Notes: a model not told the origin generated them from the sequence alone. DNA of 64,000 nt from an uncultured Candidatus Saccharibacteria bacterium (GCA_964371445.1 CAYJLK010000003.1:1108-65107), one strand, 5' to 3'. Positions 3,746-64,000 are shown, counted from the stretch's first letter. Translations and numbers: made by a program.

Positions 3746-5209
3746 TCAAAGAGTCAGCCGAATCAACACCGGTCCGTCCGGCCCGTCATCCACACGATAT
3801 CCACTGCGTTCGATAGTGGCTCGAATACGGTCAGCTTCTTTAAAATCCTTGGAAACACGGGCTACTTCGCGACGGGAGAGCATCTCGCGTATTTCTTCTG
3901 GAATGTCCACCTCCAGAATCACGTCGTTGTCGTGCGGAACGGTAATCGAAAGACCGAGATGTTTTTCGGCGTCTTCAAGAAGACCCCATTTCTCCTCCGG
4001 CGTGTAATCCTCGCTCTTGAGCGAATCCCACAGGATGCCGATCGCCTGCGACGTCGCGAGATCGTCGCGAATGGCCGCGAGGAATCGTTCCCGCGCTTCA
4101 GAGGGCGCGCTCGCATGCTTCGATTCTTCACCGATTTCTCTTCCGAGTCTCCAGAGCCGTTCGAGCGCGCTCGCGGCGCCCGCAAGCGCATCCCACGAGA
4201 AGGAAAGGGGAGTGCGGTAGTGCGCCTGGAGGAAGAAGTAGCGGAGCGCAAGCGGATGGAATCCTTTTTCGACGACGTCGGAGAGATAGACGACGTTTCC
4301 GAGCGATTTTGAGACTTTCTCTCCGCTCATAGTAAGGAAAGCGTTATGCATCCAGTAATGCACGAATGTTCGACCGCTCGCCGCTTCCGACTGGGCGATC
4401 TCATTGTTGTGGTGAATGGTGACGTGCTCTTCGCCGCCGGTGTGGATGTCGATTTCTTGCCCGAGAAGCGACCGGCTCATCGCCGAGCACTCGATGTGCC
4501 AGCCCGGATTGCCGCGACCCCACGGACTGTCCCACTGCTGTAGGTCGTCCGGCTCCGCAGCTCTCCAGAGGACGAAGTCTGCAGGGTGCCGCTTGCCCTT
4601 CACAACGTCGACACGCGCACCGGCCTCGAGGCTCACGCCGGAGAGCCCTCCGAGCTTCCCGTAACTCGGGAATTTCTGCGTATCGAAATAGAGGCCGTCT
4701 GGGAGGCGGTAGGCAAACCCTTTTTCTTCCAGTGTCCGTGCGAGCGCTATCTGCTCTTTAATATAGTCGGTCGCGCGCGGGAAGACGATGTCGTCGGTAT
4801 CGACATTTAGGTCGTTCAGGTCGTCGATGAAAAATTTCGTATACCGGAGCGCAATCTGTTCGGGAGTCGTGTGTTCACGCTCCGCGCCGACGGCCATCTT
4901 ATCTTCACCGCGATCGCCGTCACCGACGAGGTGGCCGACATCCGTGATATTGATGACGCGCCGCACGCGGTACCCGGCGGCGGCGAGGACGCGCGCGAGC
5001 GTATCTGAAAAAATGAATGCGCGCAGATTGCCGATATGAGCGCGATCATAGACGGTCGGTCCGCACGAATACAAGGAGACGATGCCGGGTCGCTGTGCTA
5101 TGAAGAGCTCTTTTGAGCCCGACAGCGTGTTGGTGAGGAAGACTTGCGCGATCCCCGTTTCTTTTGCCGTGCCCGCTCCTCTGCCGAATAGCCGTTGCCA
5201 GATGCTCAT
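3746..5209 (-). CDS. cysS: Cysteinyl-tRNA synthetase
   Basis: Class I aaRS: CGPTVYDRAHIGNLR (HIGH-like) and KVSKSLGN (KMSKS-type); N-terminus aligns with CysRS. The stop lies 4 nt from the corA start. Confidence 0.9.
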   Translation of the reverse strand: MSIWQRLFGRGAGTAKETGIAQVFLTNTLSGSKELFIAQRPGIVSLYSCGPTVYDRAHIGNLRAFIFSDTLARVLAAAGYRVRRVINITDVGHLVGDGDRGEDKMAVGAEREHTTPEQIALRYTKFFIDDLNDLNVDTDDIVFPRATDYIKEQIALARTLEEKGFAYRLPDGLYFDTQKFPSYGKLGGLSGVSLEAGARVDVVKGKRHPADFVLWRAAEPDDLQQWDSPWGRGNPGWHIECSAMSRSLLGQEIDIHTGGEEHVTIHHNNEIAQSEAASGRTFVHYWMHNAFLTMSGEKVSKSLGNVVYLSDVVEKGFHPLALRYFFLQAHYRTPLSFSWDALAGAASALERLWRLGREIGEESKHASAPSEARERFLAAIRDDLATSQAIGILWDSLKSEDYTPEEKWGLLEDAEKHLGLSITVPHDNDVILEVDIPEEIREMLSRREVARVSKDFKEADRIRATIERSGYRVDDGPDGPVLIRLTL

Positions 5210-5212
5210 ACT

Positions 5213-6160
5213 TCAGATCCAGCGCTTGCGGGCGACAAAGAGAGTGAGGAAGGTGCCGACGGTGAACATAATTCCCAGAATAATCCAAAAACCATTTGGG
5301 TCGTTTACAAACGGCATATATGCCGCCTTCATCGCAAATATCTTGGCGATAAGAGCGAGCGGCAAGAAAATAAAGCTGACAACGGTAAGTATCTTGATAA
5401 CCTCGTTCTGACGCGCAGAGAGAAGCGCGTTATTGGTCTCGCGCAATTCGCCTGCGATGGCGCGGTGCGTCCCGACGAGCCGCATGACCTGCGCGCGTTC
5501 GGCGAGGATGCGCCCGGAGCGTTCGGCGAACGAAGGACCGAAGAAGCCGCGCCCAGCAAGTACCTTCATGAAATTCTCAAGCGTTTCTTCTTGATCTGCG
5601 AGCGCCGCTTCAAGGTGGAGGAACTCGCGGCTGATATTGGATATCGAGCGGATCGTCAGACGCTCTTGACCGTCGAACATCTCGCGCTCGACGTGCGAGA
5701 GATTGCTCGCGAGGTGGTTCGCGTGGTCGCGCGTAGACGCATAGAGATGCGCGAAGAGTATTTCAAGCAGGACATCGGTGGCGATCCCGTTGTGCTCGCC
5801 GACGAGCTTCTGCGTCTCGAGTATCTTCTTCAGATGATGAAGCGGCACGATAACGTCATACCGCACCGTGATGATGAACCCGTCGCCGACGACGAGATCC
5901 ACCTCTTGGTTCTTCGTCTCGCTGCCGTCTTCTTGAGGCGAAGGGAAATGGAGCACGAGAAGCGCCCGCAGGTCGTCCTGCACGACAAGCGGCGCCGGGG
6001 TAGGGAAGACCAGTTCGGTCTTGATGCGTTCGCGTATTGAAAATTCGCCCGCGATCTGTTGGATCTCGTCGACGCTCGGTCGTTCGAGGTCTACCCACAC
6101 GCCGCCCGGGTACTCATACCGGAATATCATGCATCTAGAATAGCACAGCGTATTTAGCAT
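5213..6160 (-). CDS. corA: CorA-family divalent cation transporter-like protein, with a variant pore motif
   Basis: CorA architecture with two C-terminal TM helices and an ...IAKIFAMKAAYMPF motif where canonical CorA has YGMNFxxMPEL (GMN replaced by AMK). An alternative start lies at 6130. Confidence 0.7.
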   Translation of the reverse strand: MLNTLCYSRCMIFRYEYPGGVWVDLERPSVDEIQQIAGEFSIRERIKTELVFPTPAPLVVQDDLRALLVLHFPSPQEDGSETKNQEVDLVVGDGFIITVRYDVIVPLHHLKKILETQKLVGEHNGIATDVLLEILFAHLYASTRDHANHLASNLSHVEREMFDGQERLTIRSISNISREFLHLEAALADQEETLENFMKVLAGRGFFGPSFAERSGRILAERAQVMRLVGTHRAIAGELRETNNALLSARQNEVIKILTVVSFIFLPLALIAKIFAMKAAYMPFVNDPNGFWIILGIMFTVGTFLTLFVARKRWI

Positions 6161-56046: not shown

Positions 56047-59000
56047 CTAACGGGGTACCACAAGATTGAGGATTTTCCCCGGTACATAAATAACCCTCTT
56101 TGGCTCATGTTCGCCGAGCGCGGTGGTCACGGGCGGGAGTTTGAGCGCTTGTGCAACGGCATCTTCTTCAGAGGCATCGACAGCGAGCGTAATCGAGCCA
56201 CGACGTTTGCCGTTCACCTGTACAACAACTTCTTTCTCGGTCGCGATGGCGATGTCAGCTGTCGGCCATGCGTGCGCGTGCACACTCCCCTCTTCGCCGA
56301 GTGTCTCCCAGAGGTGCTCGGCGAGATGCGGCGCAAACGGCGCGAGCATGACGATGAGTTGCGCGAGCGCGGCCTTCGGCACGGACGGCGCCGCTTCGAG
56401 CTCGTTCACGAGTATCATAAGCGCTGCAACTGCGGTATTAAGTTTAAACCGATCTCCGTCTCCGGATACTTTCACGCTTGCCGTCGCGAGCGCCTGCTTA
56501 ATATCTTCTGGAGTATCCTCAGGCATGGATGTCGTAAGTCCATATTTCTCAACAAGACGGGTGATGCGCTCAAGGAACTTGCGCATCGATGCGACGCCAT
56601 CCAGATTCCACGGGTAGCTCCCCGGCTCGTTGTAGGGGCCGATAAAGGCGAGGTAGATGCGCACCGCGTCTGCGCCATATTTCTGCACGAACTCGTCGGG
56701 GTTCACGACATTCCCTTTCGACTTACTCATCTTCTGCCCGTCGGGGCCCATGATGAGTCCGCGGTTGAAGCGCTCGGCAAAGGGTTCGTCGAAGGGCACG
56801 AGTGCGAGGTCGTAGAGCGCCTTCATAAAGAACCGCGCGTAGAGCACGTGCATGGTGGTGTGTTCGCTCCCGCCGGAGTAGCGATTAATCGGTAGCCACT
56901 TCTTCATCATCGCCGCATCAGAAAAGTTGTGTGCGTCCTGCGGATTCAGATAACGCAGGAAGTACCACGAGGAATCTACGAATGTATCCAGCGTGTCATA
57001 CTCCGGCGTCCAGCCTTCGCCGAAGATGCGTATAACACGTTCTTTCAGCTCTTGTGAAGACGCAAGTGGCGCCTTACCCGTGGGAGTGAAGTCAACGTCG
57101 GTCGGCAAAAGCCAGGGCAGATGTTCGGCAGGTATCGCGTGCGGCTTCCCTTCGGGATCGTAGACGATAGGTATCGGACAGCCCCAGTAGCGCTGGCGGG
57201 AGACCAGCCAATCGCGGAGCCGATACATCGTCGCCTTCTCGCCGCCGACCGCCTGCACGATGTCCCATATCGCTTCTTCGTTATCCCGACCATCGAATGT
57301 ACCGGAATTGATAAGGTAACCATTTTCAACCAGTGCTTCTTCTTTTTCTAATAATTGCCAGACCTGTTTCTGATGATCGGGAGTAAGACGAGAAAGGACC
57401 TCATTCTCTTCGGTCCAGACAAGTGTATGTTTCTTCTGTTCTGAAGTATGGATTACACCCTGTTCAGCAAGACTTTCTACTTCTGCGATGAAAGCATACG
57501 TATGAGCACAGCGATTCTCTTTTTTATGAGATGCACAGTATTTCGCAGATGTTATCCAGCGAAGTCTTTTGACGATACGGACATTCTTAAGTGCAGCTTC
57601 TTCACGAATTTCGGTCAATGCAGCCTCTTCCGGAGTTTGTCCCGACTCGACACCGCCCATGATGGCAGTAGTAATTCCTTCGAGTGTCTCGTGCCAATTG
57701 AGGAGCGCGAACTTGCCGGTTGATTTATCACGTAAATGAACGATAACCGTATCACGTTTAACCTCCTCGAACCCATCTTGAGGAGGATTTTTAGAGTCGT
57801 TAGCGCACGGTACCACTACTTGCTTTATTGGTAACTGCATTTTCTGCGCGAACTCAAAGTCGCGTTCGTCGTGCGCGGGGACCGCCATTACCGCGCCCGT
57901 GCCATAGGACGCGAGGACATAATCGGCGATAAAAATAGGAATTTCTTCTTTCGTCGCTGGGTTAATCGCAGAAACACCCTCCAGCCTCACGCCGGTCTTC
58001 TCCTTGTTCTCGCTTCGCTCGCGCTCGGTCTTCTGCGCCGTCTTCTGTATGTATTCTCGCACCTCCACCGTGTTATTGATGGACTTCGTAAATCCATCAT
58101 CTGAAAGGAACGAGTGTTCGGGTGCAAGCACGACATAGGTGGCACCAAACACCGTGTCCGGCCGTGTCGTGAATACTTTAATCTTCGTGTCTCGCCCAGA
58201 AACAGATATATTGAGACTTTCCAAAACGTCGGGCTCTTCTTTGTCTGTGTAATGCTCTCTTTTTGATGTTCCCGTAACGAGCTCTGCGTCGAGGTTTGCG
58301 GCCATCTTCTCCAAATAGACAATCCGGTCTTCTTCTTTGAGATCCGAAAGTATCAGGCGTTTAGGCGCTAACTTTTTAAGTGTTTCGAAATCAAATTCCC
58401 ATGAGAACGTAGTATGGAAGTTTTTATCTTCATTACTGTGTTTCGGATCCTTCGCTGCAGCGACGAGTACGAGTTCGCGAATAGGCTTACCGTGTTTTAC
58501 CAGCGCTTTCATCGCCACTATCGCACCTAGACTATGCCCGATGAGAACAGTGTTCTTATCCATCCGGCAGTTTTCCAACACATAAGCCACTTGATCCTTC
58601 TCCGTTGGATGGTCGGTATCCGGCATTTGCGGTGCCTGCACTTCATAACCCTTATTTTCTAGTTCTGTCTTTAGCCACGGGATGAAGTTTTTGTCTGCGC
58701 GGCCAGTCCATCCGTGCAGGATGATGAAGTTTGGTTTGTCATTATTGGCAATTGAGAACTCGAGATACGCGCCTTCCGACTTTCCTATCCACGCCCGTTG
58801 CGCCGTCTTAATCTCTTCGCGCCACGGGAGCGCATCGAGACCGGTCAAAAGCCGCTCAGCATAGTCGGTAATCTTGAAGAACCACTGCGTGAGCCGCTTC
58901 TCCTCAACTTCCGTACCGCACCGCTCGCAGTGCCCGTCGATGACCTGCTCGTTGGCGAGCACGGTCTGGTCCTTGGGACACCACTTCACCGCCGCCTCCC

Positions 59001-59451
59001 GATGTTCGGCAAGCTTGTGCTCAAAGAGCTTCGTGAAGAGCCACTGCGTCCACTGGTAGTAGCCCGGGTCGCAGGCCACCACCTCCTTACTCCAATCGAA
59101 CGACGCGCCCATGCTCTTGAGCTGGGTACGCATCCGCTCCATGTTCTGGTAGGTCCACTCCTTGGGGTCGACACCGTGCTTGATCGCCGCGTTCTCAGCC
59201 GGTAATCCGAATGCGTCGAATCCTATCGGGAACAGCACATTCTTCCCGCGCATGCGCAGCAGACGCGCGTAGATGTCGGTCACAGCAAAGGCGTACCAGT
59301 GGCCGATATGCAGGTCGCCGGAGGGATAGGGAAACTCGACGAGAAGGTAATACCCCTCTTTGGACTCGTCTTTGAGATCAGTGCGGTAGAGATCGAGACT
59401 TGCCCACTTCTCTTGGGCCTTCTTCTCTATCTCGCGGTGATCATACGCCAT
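56047..59451 (-). CDS. leuS: Leucyl-tRNA synthetase carrying two extra in-frame inserted domains (alpha/beta serine hydrolase and Nudix-like), 1134 aa
   Basis: HIGH (PSGDLHIGHWYAF) and KMSKS (KMSKSKGN) present, with a CP1 Thr-rich start TTRPDTVFGATYVVLAPEH. Two ~185- and ~150-aa insertions of lower GC lie relative to the bacterial LeuRS landmarks. Confidence 0.9.
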   Translation of the reverse strand: MAYDHREIEKKAQEKWASLDLYRTDLKDESKEGYYLLVEFPYPSGDLHIGHWYAFAVTDIYARLLRMRGKNVLFPIGFDAFGLPAENAAIKHGVDPKEWTYQNMERMRTQLKSMGASFDWSKEVVACDPGYYQWTQWLFTKLFEHKLAEHREAAVKWCPKDQTVLANEQVIDGHCERCGTEVEEKRLTQWFFKITDYAERLLTGLDALPWREEIKTAQRAWIGKSEGAYLEFSIANNDKPNFIILHGWTGRADKNFIPWLKTELENKGYEVQAPQMPDTDHPTEKDQVAYVLENCRMDKNTVLIGHSLGAIVAMKALVKHGKPIRELVLVAAAKDPKHSNEDKNFHTTFSWEFDFETLKKLAPKRLILSDLKEEDRIVYLEKMAANLDAELVTGTSKREHYTDKEEPDVLESLNISVSGRDTKIKVFTTRPDTVFGATYVVLAPEHSFLSDDGFTKSINNTVEVREYIQKTAQKTERERSENKEKTGVRLEGVSAINPATKEEIPIFIADYVLASYGTGAVMAVPAHDERDFEFAQKMQLPIKQVVVPCANDSKNPPQDGFEEVKRDTVIVHLRDKSTGKFALLNWHETLEGITTAIMGGVESGQTPEEAALTEIREEAALKNVRIVKRLRWITSAKYCASHKKENRCAHTYAFIAEVESLAEQGVIHTSEQKKHTLVWTEENEVLSRLTPDHQKQVWQLLEKEEALVENGYLINSGTFDGRDNEEAIWDIVQAVGGEKATMYRLRDWLVSRQRYWGCPIPIVYDPEGKPHAIPAEHLPWLLPTDVDFTPTGKAPLASSQELKERVIRIFGEGWTPEYDTLDTFVDSSWYFLRYLNPQDAHNFSDAAMMKKWLPINRYSGGSEHTTMHVLYARFFMKALYDLALVPFDEPFAERFNRGLIMGPDGQKMSKSKGNVVNPDEFVQKYGADAVRIYLAFIGPYNEPGSYPWNLDGVASMRKFLERITRLVEKYGLTTSMPEDTPEDIKQALATASVKVSGDGDRFKLNTAVAALMILVNELEAAPSVPKAALAQLIVMLAPFAPHLAEHLWETLGEEGSVHAHAWPTADIAIATEKEVVVQVNGKRRGSITLAVDASEEDAVAQALKLPPVTTALGEHEPKRVIYVPGKILNLVVPR

Positions 59452-59457
59452 GTGCTA

Positions 59458-59497
59458 AAGGTTCAACCTTGGGAATCCGGGGTTAAGGTTGAACCTT
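59458..59497. repeat. Inverted repeat AAGGTTCAACCTT-N14-AAGGTTGAACCTT between the upstream membrane-protein gene and the leuS start
   Basis: 13-bp perfect arms; the stop codon of gene 59483.. lies inside the right arm, and the leuS ATG is 7 nt from the left arm. Confidence 0.7.
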
Positions 59498-60457
59498 GTT
59501 GATCGGTGGATAGAAGGCGGGGTCAATAATGCGTTCGAAGCATATCTGCCCTGTGCCGTGTTGCCAGTTGTCTGCTTGCATCATGATATCCTTGCCGCCG
59601 ACACCTACTGGGACCGGTTCAACGGGACGGGTTTCGGTGAGAGTGCTTGGATTGGGGCGGCTCACTGTGTTGAAGTCTGCACAGAGCTTGAACGAGAGCC
59701 CTTCGCCCGGCTGGTACACGTACGACTCCCCCGTCTGCGGGTCGACCGGCACAGGACCGTAATTGAGCGAGTTGTTGAGATCAGTGATTTTCCCCGGCAA
59801 CTTCTGTTTTGCCTGCCAGAAATAGATGATCTGTGACTGTATGACCTGCAAGTCACTTACCTTCTGCGCGTCGAAGCGCGCGAGGCGCGCCTCAGCCGGC
59901 GTGCCGACGATGAAGAACCCTGAGATAACCGTACCGACGGCGATAACGGCTACGCCGATGCGCACCATATTCCGCCGCTTGGGGAACATATCCCAGTATC
60001 CTCTGAAGTCAGCGATGAAGTGCATAAACACGCCGCCCGCGACGAGGAAGATGATGAGCACCTTCAGAAGGAAGGCGACCGTGAGCGCTTCACCGTTGAG
60101 GAAGGTAGTAAGAAGCGTGATGAGGTCGACCGCCATCGCGATGCCCGCAACGAAGAGGGTTAGGATGAGCGCCCATCGCCGGACCCAGATCTCATTGCGC
60201 GAAGGGTCGCGGACGGCGTCCTTATGTATGAACCGCATGAGGAGCAGATAGATGGGAAAGAGCACGATGATTGAGGCCATCTCGTAGCTGATACCGCTCT
60301 GGTACGGGTCGGCCGGATAGTAGCTCAGCACGTTTGGGAACGTGTAGTTGATGTAATCGAACGTGAGGAGAATAAACGCGATAACACTCCAATAAAACGT
60401 GACCATCGCCCCTGCCCACAAGAAGAAGTCCTTTGGTGTTGTTTTTGGTTTGTCCAT
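59483..60457 (-). CDS. Hypothetical membrane protein (6 TM plus C-terminal extracytoplasmic domain)
   Basis: ATG at 60457 (MDKPK) lies 8 nt downstream of the extended -10 TGGTATAAT (60466-60474), suggesting a leaderless mRNA; an alternative ATG lies at 60463. Confidence 0.55.
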   Translation of the reverse strand: MDKPKTTPKDFFLWAGAMVTFYWSVIAFILLTFDYINYTFPNVLSYYPADPYQSGISYEMASIIVLFPIYLLLMRFIHKDAVRDPSRNEIWVRRWALILTLFVAGIAMAVDLITLLTTFLNGEALTVAFLLKVLIIFLVAGGVFMHFIADFRGYWDMFPKRRNMVRIGVAVIAVGTVISGFFIVGTPAEARLARFDAQKVSDLQVIQSQIIYFWQAKQKLPGKITDLNNSLNYGPVPVDPQTGESYVYQPGEGLSFKLCADFNTVSRPNPSTLTETRPVEPVPVGVGGKDIMMQADNWQHGTGQICFERIIDPAFYPPINKVQP

Positions 60458-60536
60458 AAGCATGCATTATACCACAAATAAGGTGTGCTATCGGCTTCCT
60501 ACACTATCAGCCGCTCGACTTAAATGCCTATTTCAG

Positions 60537-60582
60537 CCGTGGAGGAAGACCATCACATCATCGGTATAAAAAGAGTCCCCGC
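60537..60582. repeat. Copy 1 of duplicated ychF 3'-end segment (encodes ..DVMVFLHG-stop on the minus strand) plus shared terminator half-stem
   Basis: Identical 46-mer to 61251-61296; shares the core CCGTGGAGGAAGACCAT with the authentic ychF end. Confidence 0.85.
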
Positions 60583-60620
60583 GCGAGCGCAGGGACTGAG
60601 GATGGACAAGGGGTGGATCG

Positions 60621-61142
60621 TTAGTTTGGCGCAGGAATTGGTGCGGGTTTGAGTTGGTCGTTCAACCACGTGAGTCCTCTTTCGTACCACTCCCGTGCCT
60701 TACTCTTACTCGGCGGCCGAGGAACACAGGCGCAGATGTACAGCCATATGGAAAGCGAGATCATTCCGTAGGACATCCATTGACCGCCTTTGCTTGATGG
60801 CAGTAGCCACATTAAAAATCCCATGCAACCAATAGTCATAGCGAGAACGAACCGCAGAGAAGCGTCACTCCAAGGAACGGCAAACAGTTTACCGTTCGCC
60901 AAGAATTCACTCTCTTCTTTTTCTGTACGACGAACGATACTCATCATAGAAAAAGTGTTAATGGACAACAATGCAAACATGGCGGGATCGAAATAAGATA
61001 CATTTCCTCCCCAGAAAAATACCGTGGAAGTTATCAACGTCCATTTCTGTAGTCTAAACTTCGTCAGTCCGGTGAATTGCTGGAACTTGTCGCAGAACTT
61101 CTGTGCTACAGACAGTAGCAAACTATCGAGTAATTCGACCAT
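60621..61142 (-). CDS. Hypothetical small membrane protein (174 aa), cassette B cargo
   Basis: AGAGGGAGG Shine-Dalgarno 7 nt upstream of ATG 61142; 3-4 TM helices; followed by a hairpin plus CTCTTTTTATACC terminator. Confidence 0.55.
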   Translation of the reverse strand: MVELLDSLLLSVAQKFCDKFQQFTGLTKFRLQKWTLITSTVFFWGGNVSYFDPAMFALLSINTFSMMSIVRRTEKEESEFLANGKLFAVPWSDASLRFVLAMTIGCMGFLMWLLPSSKGGQWMSYGMISLSIWLYICACVPRPPSKSKAREWYERGLTWLNDQLKPAPIPAPN

Positions 61143-61217
61143 GATCGTACCTCCCTCTCTTTTGGTTGCGTAAGGGGATATATTCCCCACCTTTATGTCT
61201 CAACGTGCTCTAAAACT

Positions 61218-61245
61218 AATATACTGAAATTTACTACTTCGTCAA
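61218..61245 (-). promoter_or_regulatory. Promoter-like element TTGACG-16-TATATT directly after the ychF-tail copy 2
   Basis: The -35 begins right after the pseudo stop codon; this is a paralogous position to the TTGACA element after the authentic ychF stop. Confidence 0.45.
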
Positions 61246-61250
61246 GTCAT

Positions 61251-61296
61251 CCGTGGAGGAAGACCATCACATCATCGGTATAAAAAGAGTCCCCGC
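61251..61296. repeat. Copy 2 of duplicated ychF 3'-end segment (encodes ..TDDVMVFLHG-stop on the minus strand)
   Basis: See 60537-60582. Confidence 0.85.
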
Positions 61297-61330
61297 CGGA
61301 GCGGGGATGAGTCGGGATGCGGCGAAACAT

Positions 61331-61747
61331 TCAGGGCATGACGAAGATGAACTCGTCATTCGGTTCGAACAAGTCGTCACCAGAACAGCTGGCGCTCCCG
61401 CTCGAAATGGTGCTCTCGCCTCTCGTAAATCGCATGATGTAGGGCGACTCTGTGCCGGGTTTGTACGGCTCCATGGCGAGATTCAATACATCACCCGGTT
61501 GCGTGTCCTTGCCGTTGCGGAGCTCGTTCATCAAGAAAAAGTGCAGCCCCCTCGGCGCATGTACGAGTCCGAGTACTGCGGCCGCCGCAACAATTGCGCT
61601 GTACGGTGCCGGTTCGTTGAAGCCGAGATCGGTCACTTTGGTCCTCGTCAGATAGTGCGGACTGCCTTCGAACCTCACACTCATCCAGATGTTGAATGCA
61701 CGCTTAACCCTCGTTTGCGGAACCTTCTGTCCTGATTGAGCTGTCAT
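61331..61747 (-). CDS. Hypothetical protein (138 aa), cassette A cargo
   Basis: AAGGGGAG Shine-Dalgarno 7 nt upstream of ATG 61747; followed by a CCCCGC-TCCG-GCGGGG hairpin plus T-run; no family recognised. Confidence 0.55.
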   Translation of the reverse strand: MTAQSGQKVPQTRVKRAFNIWMSVRFEGSPHYLTRTKVTDLGFNEPAPYSAIVAAAAVLGLVHAPRGLHFFLMNELRNGKDTQPGDVLNLAMEPYKPGTESPYIMRFTRGESTISSGSASCSGDDLFEPNDEFIFVMP

Positions 61748-61788
61748 CGAACTACTCCCCTTGTGTGATGTATCGGATACCCTCGCTC

Positions 61789-61817
61789 AAGCTAGATAGA
61801 ATCCACTATATTGTCAA
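61789..61817 (-). promoter_or_regulatory. Promoter-like element TTGACA-17-TAGCTT immediately after the ychF stop
   Basis: An exact -35 hexamer sits 1 nt after the TAA; the -10 is weak. Confidence 0.35.
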
Positions 61818-61818
61818 G

Positions 61819-62916
61819 TTACCCGTGGAGGAAGACCATTACGTCGCCGTCCTTGACGATGTACTCCTTGCCTTCCGTGCGGACCTTTGCCGCCTCGCGC
61901 GCGGCGGCGTAGCCGCCAGCGGCGATAAGGTCGTCATATGAAACGACTTCGGCGCGGATAAATTTATTCAAAAAGTCATTATGGATTGCCGCGCCCGCAA
62001 CGGGCGCTGTACTTCCCTCTTTAATCGTCCACGCGCGCGTCTCGTCGGTGCCGGTAGTAAAAAATGAAATGAGTCCGAGTGTGTCGTACGCATTTCTGAT
62101 GAGACCGGCGAGTCCGTCTTCGGACACACCGAGCTCCTGACGGAAGCTCTGGCGGTCATCATCAGCGACATCATTCAATTCGCGCTCCGTTGCGGCATCG
62201 AGGAATATGTACCGCCCGCCAAGCGCTTCGATGAGCTCATACGCGCGCTCGGCGCGACCGTCATTGACCTCGTCGAGGTTGTGTCCGCCGCTCTTCCTAT
62301 TAAGCGCGTAGAGGATCGGCTTCATCGTGAGAAGGTTCAGGTGTGCAACAAGTTTTTTCTCATCGTCGGTGAGCTCGGCATGGAGCGCGAGTTTCCCCAG
62401 GGTTATGCCTTGCATAAGCTTGGCGAGAGCCGCGTCCTCGGCGACAAACTCCTTTCGTCCCGCCTTGATATCGCCCGCGATCTTGTCGCGCCGCTTCCGC
62501 ACCTGCTCGCCGTCGGCAAGCACGAGCTCCATGTTAATGATCTCAATGTCCTTGTACGGCTCGATAGTGGTATCGACGTGCGTAATATTCGTATCGTCGA
62601 AGAAGCGCACCAACTGGAGGACGGCATCGGTCTCGCGGATATTCGCGAGAAATTGGTTGCCGAGACCTTCACCCTCTGCCGCGCCCTTCACAAGCCCGGC
62701 GATATCGACGAATTCTATCGCCGCCGGGATAATCTTCTCGCTCTTTGAAAGTTCTGCGAGCGCGCCGAGACGTGCGTCGGGAACGCCGACCACACCCACC
62801 GACGGATCGATAGTGCAGAACGGATAATTCTCTGCCGGCACCGAGGTCTTCGTGAGTGCATTAAAAAGCGTGGACTTCCCCACGTTCGGCAGACCAACAA
62901 TGCCTATCTTCAACAT
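61819..62916 (-). CDS. ychF: Ribosome-binding ATPase YchF (Obg-family GTPase)
   Basis: G1 MLKIGIVGLPNVGKSTLFNALT, TGS C-terminal domain ending ...KDGDVMVFLHG. Confidence 0.9.
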   Translation of the reverse strand: MLKIGIVGLPNVGKSTLFNALTKTSVPAENYPFCTIDPSVGVVGVPDARLGALAELSKSEKIIPAAIEFVDIAGLVKGAAEGEGLGNQFLANIRETDAVLQLVRFFDDTNITHVDTTIEPYKDIEIINMELVLADGEQVRKRRDKIAGDIKAGRKEFVAEDAALAKLMQGITLGKLALHAELTDDEKKLVAHLNLLTMKPILYALNRKSGGHNLDEVNDGRAERAYELIEALGGRYIFLDAATERELNDVADDDRQSFRQELGVSEDGLAGLIRNAYDTLGLISFFTTGTDETRAWTIKEGSTAPVAGAAIHNDFLNKFIRAEVVSYDDLIAAGGYAAAREAAKVRTEGKEYIVKDGDVMVFLHG

Positions 62917-62956
62917 ATATGCACCCTACGACTTCATCACTTTTTACGCAAGGCAG

Positions 62957-63463
62957 TTAGCCTCGTTTCGGCACGAGGAGGAACCGCATATACTGAAGCA
63001 GTGCATAGAAAATGGCGGTCGCGACGACGAAGAATGCAACAGCAGAACCGAAGGACAAGGGCGGTATCTCTCCGAGCGTGAGGAAGACGAGGAACCACCA
63101 CCCTGTAAAGGCGATTGCGCTGCCAAAGGCAAACGAGATGCGCTGCCGCGAGAGAGCCCACGAGACGGTAATGATTAAAAGTGCGAGCGCAATAAGAGTC
63201 CAGTAGCTCGAAGAGAGTGCCGACTGTTCTGAAGTGTGCTGTAGATACGCGATGCTGACGAGACCAAATGACGAGAGTAAGAGAAGCGACATGCCGAAAC
63301 GTAATCCGCGGGCGATTGCGTGGAGGTGCGCACGTTCGGCGCTATCTATCTTCCCGTCCCGCATAGAGCGGACATACGCAAGTTCGCCCCACACCGCCGA
63401 GAGCGCCCCTAGTGCGGCGCCGAGCGCTTGACAGAGAACGAGCGCCGGGACGAGTGTGTTCAT
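62957..63463 (-). CDS. Hypothetical membrane protein
   Basis: Five hydrophobic helices. Confidence 0.5.
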   Translation of the reverse strand: MNTLVPALVLCQALGAALGALSAVWGELAYVRSMRDGKIDSAERAHLHAIARGLRFGMSLLLLSSFGLVSIAYLQHTSEQSALSSSYWTLIALALLIITVSWALSRQRISFAFGSAIAFTGWWFLVFLTLGEIPPLSFGSAVAFFVVATAIFYALLQYMRFLLVPKRG

Positions 63464-63719: not shown

Positions 63720-63739
63720 AGTGAAATAATACCACAAAA

Positions 63740-63783
63740 CCAAGGTTCGACCTTACATCCGAACCCCCAAGGTCGAACCTTGG
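63740..63783 (-). terminator. Inverted repeat CCAAGGTTCGACCTT-N14-AAGGTCGAACCTTGG acting as a terminator of the upstream partial gene
   Basis: 15-bp arms, followed on the minus strand by GTTTTGTGG and then the -10 of the next gene. Confidence 0.55.
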
Positions 63784-63785
63784 TT

Positions 63786-64000
63786 TTAATGACTCGGTCG
63801 AAGATGGAAGCCGCGGATGGTCCGCGTGGTGAAATAGAGTGCCACGAGCGCTATGAGCGCTAGCGCCTCAATATAGATGAATGAAGGGTCGAAGATGCTC
63901 GTGCCGGCGCGATAGTGACTAACGGCGCTCGTGCCGAACAAAAACGTCCCGTATATCGCGACGAGTTCGTTGAACCAATGGATCCATCCTTGCGCCGGAT
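63786..64000 (-). CDS. 3' end of a CDS continuing beyond the window (C-terminal TM helix)
   Basis: Open frame from the window edge ending ...IYIEALALIALVALYFTTRTIRGFHLRPSH-TAA at 63786-63788. Not in the ORF track because no start codon lies inside the window. Confidence 0.45.
   Translation of the reverse strand, partial: PAQGWIHWFNELVAIYGTFLFGTSAVSHYRAGTSIFDPSFIYIEALALIALVALYFTTRTIRGFHLRPSH

Follow-up and report, generated by a model that had tools for sequence, protein, structure and literature searches.

In a 64-kb stretch of DNA from a metagenome-assembled genome (MAG) of the Patescibacteria/Paceibacteria, referred to here as the window and always meaning the whole stretch, the gene encoding the GTPase YchF (ychF) is followed by two small gene cassettes, and each cassette ends in an additional copy of the last codons of ychF itself. 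The data are best read as showing that the 3' end of ychF is a hotspot of cassette accretion, from which arrays grow, and that this hotspot is conserved across the Paceibacteria. The array is anchored by ychF (61819-62916, minus strand, as are the other array features described below), which encodes a 365-aa protein with the Pfam domains MMR_HSR1 and YchF-GTPase_C and whose authentic tail, made up of the last codons and a TAA stop, lies at 61819-61842. Below, L-numbers denote loci or contigs of relatives and P-numbers denote proteins.

The three tails share a 17-nt core, CCGTGGAGGAAGACCAT, which occurs at exactly three sites in the window (60537, 61251 and 61823, the authentic one spanning 61823-61839) against an expectation of 0.10; none of 100 shuffled windows reached three copies. 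The extra tails are found 572 and 1286 nt downstream of the authentic end on the same strand, giving spacings of 572 and 714 nt, and form part of a 57-nt repeat with 95% identity (copy 1, 60533-60589; copy 2, 61247-61303). Within this repeat is a 46-nt exact block that extends into the 3' arm and T-run of the terminator of each cassette. On the minus strand, each repeat runs from the terminator 3' arm and T-run through ATACC to the displaced tail GAT GAT GTG ATG GTC TTC CTC CAC GGN TGA, with TTTTTATACC joining arm and tail; copy 2, whose tail proper is 61247-61276, has GGA TGA at the end and copy 1 has GGC TGA. The copies translate as ..YTDDVMVFLHG-TGA, compared with KDGDVMVFLHG-TAA at the authentic end. 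The authentic end and copy 2 also share a distal flank, CTTGACAATATAGT and CTTGACGAAGTAGT, respectively, and CTTGACRA comes after both tails. A first-pass annotation of the same DNA had described the identical 46-nt segments, their minus-strand reading as ychF tails and the common core, had taken the shared proximal flank of copies 1 and 2 to be the 3' half of a terminator and the distal flank to be -35-like, and had described each unit as a promoter, one small open reading frame (ORF) and a terminator, with no integrase or attC-type site in the window. All of this was borne out: terminators are called at 61307-61290 and 60597-60574, and the flank of copy 2 belongs to a promoter matching the sigma-70 consensus at 10 of 12 positions.

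More than 20 assemblies made independently from one population contain the same 3.6-kb sequence at 99.9-100% identity, among them a 723-kb contig at 16.6x. The locus is therefore not an assembly artefact; moreover, a single read is longer than the repeats. An origin in chance similarity or in assembly collapse, the latter an objection raised with the original description, has a negligible probability in view of the shuffled windows, the >20 assemblies and the recurrence of the arrangement in unrelated data sets. The tail-copy array is real and far beyond chance.

Downstream of ychF, the 5' region of cassette 1 (61748-61818) begins with a -35-like TTGACA (61812-61817) separated from the ychF stop by a single base (C, 61818), followed by a weak -10 and the ribosome-binding site of ORF138 (61331-61747), the cargo of this ychF-proximal unit. 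The intrinsic terminator hairpin (61290-61307) reads TCCCCGC-TCCG-GCGGGGA and is followed by a T-run. In the relative L097, a homologous TAA-TTGACGAAT is located 5' of an ORF138 homologue, and an orthologous terminator hairpin is present as well. Just past the TGA of copy 2 the promoter of cassette 2 begins (61218-61245; TTGACG-16-TATATT), and the same arrangement of stop and TTGACRAAT is found 5' of homologues of its cargo gene in L101, L138 and L172. This gene, which belongs to the ORF189 family and encodes a small hydrophobic protein, occupies 60621-61145; the gene caller placed the start at GTG 61190, but the lengths of the homologues and a GGAGG box make the ATG at 61145 (174 aa) the likely start. 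The terminator hairpin of cassette 2 (60574-60597) leads into repeat copy 1, at which the Logan contig L218 begins exactly. Beyond copy 1 lies a ychF-distal flank of 69 nt (B', 60464-60532) holding the extended -10 TGGTATAAT of a gene for a DUF5671 (Pfam) membrane protein (59483-60463), which forms the conserved border of the variable slot on its distal side. The 69 nt of B' lie within the range of 16-140 nt measured for the spacer between ychF and the next gene in relatives whose site is unoccupied, as in L022, where TAG is followed by 14 nt, TGGTATAAT and ATG. From this arrangement we infer that copy 1 is the oldest tail, still joined to its original downstream flank B'.

The gene order ychF, variable gap, gene for DUF5671 or for a ~181-aa membrane protein, and leuS is conserved throughout the Paceibacteria. 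The gap was surveyed in 91 distinct metagenomic loci of the clade in which YchF ends in VFLHG, using regular expressions and a mismatch scan for ychF tails. In ~44 of ~90 DVMVFLHG-clade loci the gap is empty, with the next gene 16-140 nt past the stop and a typical layout of stop, 10-20 nt and TGGTATAAT, while the occupants elsewhere are ORF189-family genes (~10 loci), a two-gene DUF5674 unit (~6), ORF138-family genes (3) and other short inserts (~17). Extra tails with at most 5 mismatches in 24 nt were found in 7 of the 91 loci (L113, L114, L138, L164, L185, L202 and L205), and more diverged ones in L124, L134, L167, L172 and L209, for a total of at least 12. All are situated downstream of ychF on the same strand; at the same threshold, control compartments amounting to 551 kb (downstream on the opposite strand, upstream on either strand) contain none. 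More distant Paceibacteria, in which ychF ends in ..DGDVIEFKI*, have extra tails of the IEFKI type in 5 of ~37 GTDB loci (L026, L027, L031 with four extra copies, L036 and L058). A search of related genomes, which the first-pass annotation had suggested for the core, thus returned tail copies in both groups, and the extra tails match the tail type of the host lineage. Contigs often end at the tail (L032, L218), so the frequency of arrays is probably underestimated.

The duplication is largely a property of ychF. Among 1827 ORF ends from all Patescibacteria loci, a copy of the gene's own tail within 3 kb was found at 8 ychF loci and in four cases for other genes, three of which are adjacent tandem duplications resembling assembly errors and the fourth a 19-nt repeat in L124. 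Perfect 22-52-nt tandem duplications in or beside genes were also noted at L098:3515-3577 and at several places in L111, and have the look of artefacts of assembly or frameshifting. Chance was judged to account for a 15-mer repeat in L171. The possibilities that the tail is kept as a mini-ORF (MVFLHG*) or for an anti-Shine-Dalgarno-like CCUCC were dropped, since neither fits the IEFKI clade.

All loci with two stacked units (the window, L113, L138, L202 and L209) have a tail fragment between the units. The window has two cassettes and three tails, and the flank beyond the most distal of these resembles that of an empty site, a combination that fits repeated insertion at the ychF end and not tandem duplication. 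A local origin by tandem duplication or slippage without horizontal input, with the tail perhaps retained as upstream context for the following promoter, would suit L185, where the unit is a plain 53-nt tandem duplication of the tail plus TAACTTGACAT, and the -35 box does abut the stop in many loci. As a general explanation it is nevertheless very improbable: apart from the count of tails, the cassettes are mutually unrelated, one of them has a foreign G+C content, and the copies carry multiple synonymous changes that largely show them to stem from foreign alleles.

This last point rests on the last 24 nt of 11 pairs of authentic tail and copy, which differ at 40 sites distributed 4/4/32 over codon positions 1, 2 and 3; VMVFLHG* is still encoded by 9 of the 11 copies, and the copies in L202 and L138 retain 16 and 29 codons, respectively, of a ychF reading frame that has diverged and yet is intact. 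With differences that are almost only synonymous, the copies come from other functional ychF alleles. Coding selection acted on both copy and resident tail as they diverged, so that they must have been in different genomes at the time, which implies horizontal input. Judged by these sequences, a new gene end probably came with each insertion and pushed the old one aside. The displaced copy in L036 (..IEFRV*) resembles the family consensus more closely than does the ychF end now in place (..MEFLV*).

The extent of the copies varies. Homology to ychF starts on the left at -19/-24 in copies of a hairpin type, at -27 in the window, at -30 in L114, L205 and L209, at -50 in L202 and at -90 in L138. 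Whole units may be as short as 53-68 nt (L185, L124, L164 and L172) and are hence too small for circular elements; in L124, L164 and L172 they comprise a conserved hairpin and then the tail. This hairpin (gYgaYgc..CCCCGTGAGA...TCTCATGGGG) is found just past the ychF stop in one subclade (L124, at 2945-2990; L172, L134, L167, L164, L113, L209 and L205), with the displaced tail following it; it shows a few compensatory changes, and where it occurs the resident tail tends to have an atypical codon version (ATGGTGTTTTTRCAYGG).

The first-pass annotation had proposed repeated site-specific integration. Its directional component, with accretion at one end and a tail brought in by each unit, agrees with the data. 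The site-specificity is not established, and the absence of a recombinase from the window and the arrays, the variable junctions and the 53-68-nt units argue against it. We tentatively prefer, at a little short of an even chance, a process without a dedicated integrase, in which imported DNA recombines with the body of ychF as the anchor (homology-facilitated recombination) and pre-formed modules subsequently spread. DNA from related strains would be taken up, the conserved ychF body would serve as the homologous anchor, and the second joint would be formed by short-homology or illegitimate recombination within the final 20-90 nt of the ychF already present, as in homology-facilitated illegitimate recombination. 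An insertion would deliver a new ychF end, a stop and a cassette, and the resident tail would be displaced while remaining joined to its former neighbour. In the window, the order of arrival may have been the original tail (copy 1 with the B' flank), the ORF189 unit and, as the newest, the ORF138 unit. An existing module of cassette and trailing tail could then pass between genomes by double crossover, in which the ychF body would form the left arm and the 24-33-nt tail the right one, and this spread is proposed as the reason why identical junctions recur. The short repeats would persist by being too short for efficient RecA-mediated deletion.

Several findings are in keeping with recombination of imported DNA. 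Between L175 and L209 (L209:4429-4730), a 302-nt perfectly identical block sits within flanks that are 5-20% diverged and extends from 70 nt before the end of ychF across the hairpin into the beginning of the gene ORF372, a signature of a short segment recently imported by recombination. The VFLHG and IEFKI tail families are wholly different in sequence; the process therefore follows ychF and not a motif. The 5' head of ychF is duplicated as well, with inserted genes, at 2 of 131 loci and in none of the controls. L031 has a 44-nt copy of the ychF head (43/44; 5093-5137 versus 5995-6039) at a distance of 903 nt upstream, separated from ychF by a KilA-N gene, and in L029 the promoter and first 17 nt of ychF are copied 1669 nt upstream (1244-1302 versus ~2912-2971), with two ORFs in between. 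Such duplications are to be expected if the ychF body acts as the anchor and the other end is joined by short or no homology. They came to light because ATACCGATG matched ychF 5' ends in reverse complement, a similarity that was itself judged to be due to chance. Alternative occupants are found between the same conserved flanks in relatives, as in minimal mobile elements (MMEs). Many Patescibacteria possess genes for homologous recombination and comEC/pili (PMC12455944), and experiments have demonstrated competence in Saccharibacteria (PMC10633639). A mosaic test of the window ychF against L097, L098, L101, L017 and L018 gave 66-85% identity throughout, the relatives being too distant.

A set of observations weighs against this preferred reading, and much of it speaks for an integron-like system, or one like the cis-mobilizable elements (CIMEs), in which a recombinase encoded in trans or by a helper element reads the ychF tail as attB or attI and inserts small circular cassettes whose attP carries the replacement tail, with tandem accretion at the ychF-proximal site. 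Direct repeats of the 3' end of the target gene are the textbook signature of site-specific integration. The two window cassettes are unrelated and yet end on the right in 46-57 nt that are identical or nearly so, including 20 shared non-ychF nucleotides to the left of the tail (GCGGGGACTCTTTTTATACC); two independent illegitimate joints would not give these, and the recombination model needs a three-step path. The ORF372 cassette of L209, unrelated to those of the window, ends similarly in terminator-TTTTTTATACC-tail. Most left junctions fall between -24 and -33. In the IEFKI clade, six copies, each attached to a different cassette and drawn from three genomes, have a common start and a bipartite consensus of their own, GAT GGY AGT GTT ATA GAR TTY AAR, with a non-coding middle; the first copy of L031 (L031c1) and the L036 copy are identical at 25 of 33 positions, compared with 19-21 of 33 for each against its own ychF, and ATA is used in 6 of 6 copies versus 9 of 29 authentic tails. 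This consensus and common start have the look of a recognition site that has been conserved. No other gene near ychF was seen to have a duplicated end, and competence has been shown in Saccharibacteria, not in Paceibacteria. The specificity for ychF in the scan of ORF ends and the strict polarity of the arrays also suit a dedicated recombinase, as does the co-variation of copy and authentic tail at synonymous sites within a genome (L114 versus L205, and L164), which suggests continuing exchange between the sites. There is a precedent in the Dehalococcoides ssrA islands, about half of which have no integration module (PMC3146451), and in CIMEs and their accretion (reviewed in PMC5704250), which are known from streptococci as well.

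On the other side, no gene for an integrase or other recombinase was found in the window or the adjoining 10 kb, in the ~25 cassettes of ~17 arrays, or within 10 kb on either side of ychF in the inspected loci. Scans of IMG/VR with four patterns (the core, the IEFKI tail, the IEFKI copy consensus and tail+TTGAC) for viral or plasmid contigs bearing an attP gave 0 matches each, and no integrase-bearing element using the same att site was found in ~130 loci or IMG/VR. Left starts ranging from -19 to -90 nt and long fragments of coding quality are not expected of an attP arm, the 53-68-nt units are difficult to accommodate, two unrelated tails would require co-evolving specificities, and the head duplications would require a second system. 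The array is moreover invariant in its own population, and close relatives hold the same genes without a distal repeat. Taken together, a trans-acting site-specific recombinase is a real possibility that we consider appreciably less than evenly probable, and recombination of imported DNA is slightly favoured over it. Boundaries made of direct ychF tail copies also set the array apart from integrons proper: no attC sites (R''/L''-L'/R' boxes with a GTTRRRY core) were detected, and since there is no attC-like site and the cassettes carry their own promoters, in contrast to integron cassettes, which mostly have none and rely on a shared Pc promoter, the array is not an integron. Involvement of dif/Xer was likewise rejected, as there is no dif-like dyad in the tail and no terminus signature, the genes on both sides of ychF being co-oriented over >50 kb.

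The first-pass annotation had suggested looking for presence/absence polymorphism of the cassettes between strains: there is none among the 23 assemblies of the window population, and no near-isogenic pair differing by a cassette among 100 loci. One 4.9x scaffold of the same population, L015 (L015:1363-1407 and ~1990), contains Ns in the ychF 3' region and lacks 32 nt at copy 2, so that the T-run is gone together with the left part of the tail copy. With its Ns and low coverage it is not credible as a true polymorphism, and scaffolding or assembly is the probable cause. Homologous genes are present in the same slot in relatives whose YchF is 82-84% identical, namely an ORF138 homologue (68%) in L097 and ORF189 homologues (45-47%) in L098 and L101, with no tail copy and with the terminator adjoining the TGGTATAAT of the next gene. 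The annotation had named the same genes without repeats in related genomes as a finding that would speak against it, and this situation does occur, although for one gene at a time and not for the complete set.

A further possibility is that the arrays are the remains of integrase-bearing islands or prophages at the ychF 3' end, in which deletions left attL and attR around one gene each. The ychF gene is targeted elsewhere by pipolins with large serine recombinases (PMC11551731), a pneumococcal prophage attB adjoins ychF (PMC8637289), the KilA-N gene in the 5'-side insert of L031 is of phage type, and cassette 2 has a low G+C content. Such decay is nonetheless improbable: the 3' side holds no integrase, phage or conjugation gene in ~17 arrays among ~130 loci, the units are tidy promoter-ORF-terminator modules and not truncated gene sets, and the same small genes are the sole occupants of the slot in many relatives.

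The cargo genes are small and diverse. ORF138 matches no Pfam family. Outside its own cluster (P0001, 100% identical), ORF138 has a single homologue in a database of 5.8 billion proteins, the 68% identical P0002, whose gene is the one directly after ychF in L097; a 37% identical relative is placed after a tail copy in L202. An AlphaFold model of ORF138 from a two-sequence alignment reached a predicted local distance difference test score (pLDDT) of 41 and was unusable. A 160-aa ORF antisense to ORF138 (61253-61735, plus strand), with a GTG start inside tail copy 2, is probably spurious in this G+C-rich sequence. The ORF189 family comprises 25 homologues of 168-182 aa at 38-49% identity, located in relatives between ychF and the gene for DUF5671 or a 181-aa membrane protein; the product is probably a membrane protein, and its unit has a G+C content of 43-46% compared with ~56% around it. 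Across arrays, the cargo includes DUF5674 with a partner ORF, DUF6881, a PQQ-like beta-propeller, a 372-aa protein and several membrane or other ORFs of 40-66 aa, in units of 0.05-1.4 kb. Most units have a promoter-like box directly past the preceding stop, with TTGACA also in the L031 cassettes, and a terminator before the next tail. The terminator hairpins are G+C-rich with a T-run and differ between cassettes, and the DUF5674 cassette is without one.

The ychF array shares some, but not all, of the defining features of ssrA islands and CIMEs, integrons and MMEs, and no description of a ychF-tail cassette array was found in the literature searched. The ssrA islands are arranged in tandem at the ssrA 3' end with 20-bp ssrA repeats, and about half have a serine-recombinase integration module (PMC3146451). 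Similar to these islands and to CIMEs, the ychF locus has one anchor gene with inserts stacked downstream, direct repeats of the 3' end of a target gene whose end is restored, and many units without integration genes, and it is a major site of strain-level variation in gene content; as in CIMEs, the units have att-like bounds and lack recombination and transfer genes. The ssrA repeats are a fixed 20 bp with a mapped point and enclose kilobases to tens of kilobases, whereas the ychF repeats are 19-90 nt long with a variable junction, the units are single-gene modules of 0.05-1.4 kb without a recombinase, and the target is a protein-coding tail with preserved codons. Integrons offer a parallel in their very small, mostly single-ORF, co-oriented cassettes, inferred entry at one proximal site and similar 3' boundaries within a genome, but the ychF array has no adjacent intI and no attI or attC, its boundaries are the last codons of a host gene, and the cassettes bring their own promoters and terminators. 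A likeness to the process that we prefer is offered by Neisseria MMEs and by the homology-facilitated illegitimate recombination of naturally transformable species, where alternative cassettes reside between conserved genes with no element recombinase, and uptake with homologous recombination, or a one-sided anchor with a short or illegitimate second joint, accounts for the gain (PMC3787668; PMC8116780; PMC5312590). The 302-nt block provides a visible recent tract of short homologous recombination at the ychF locus of the kind found there. We know of no description of MMEs leaving ordered, co-oriented displaced gene ends or growing into arrays. Integrative mobile elements exploiting Xer (IMEX) and Acinetobacter pdif modules are small, have no recombinase of their own, are bounded by a repeated host recombination site and can form tandem arrays. 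The ychF units resemble them as small recombinase-less modules bounded by a repeated host sequence, but the ychF tail does not have two 11-bp arms around a 6-bp spacer, and the locus shows no gene-strand switch as at a terminus.

The surroundings of the array were also inspected. Next past the DUF5671 gene is leuS (56047-59451, minus strand); the leucyl-tRNA synthetase encoded in the window has 1134 aa, with inserted alpha/beta-hydrolase (Ser_hydrolase/Abhydrolase_1) and NUDIX domains, and its counterparts in L097 and L101 have ~935 aa and NUDIX only. Between the DUF5671 gene and leuS there is a perfect 13-nt inverted repeat (AAGGTTCAACCTT / AAGGTTGAACCTT; 59458-59497), and a hairpin with the similar CAAGGTTCGACCTT occurs at 63739-63788, upstream of the neighbours of ychF. 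The motif recurs in L098, L121 and L122, which suggests a lineage-wide hairpin resembling repetitive extragenic palindromes (REP) or a terminator without a T-run. An Rfam scan of 59300-63000 returned no family. At the other end of the window, a plus-strand gene at 13-1599, entering from the window edge, encodes a Peptidase_S74 domain (endosialidase chaperone, phage tail-spike type) together with a bacterial Ig-like domain.

Patescibacteria have tiny genomes with few recognizable mobile elements, and their acquisition of accessory genes is poorly understood. The ychF locus is a record of recurrent, directional gene gain at one point, in a clade with ~50% YchF divergence and with no element-encoded integrase. 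The repeated tails break short-read assemblies, and the variability of the locus is underestimated in MAGs. It is possible, though on the whole unlikely, that the Paceibacteria possess a native gene-capture platform, integrase-less or served by a recombinase in trans, that is an analogue of the integron with the last codons of ychF as its insertion site; promoter-ORF-terminator mini-cassettes would then bring replacement tails, and the displaced tails would act as reusable recombination sites. If a dedicated recombinase is indeed at work, the locus would represent a new kind of gene-capture system. If transformation and short-homology recombination are responsible instead, the arrays would be a testable footprint of competence building arrays, in which the displaced tails record past alleles of ychF.

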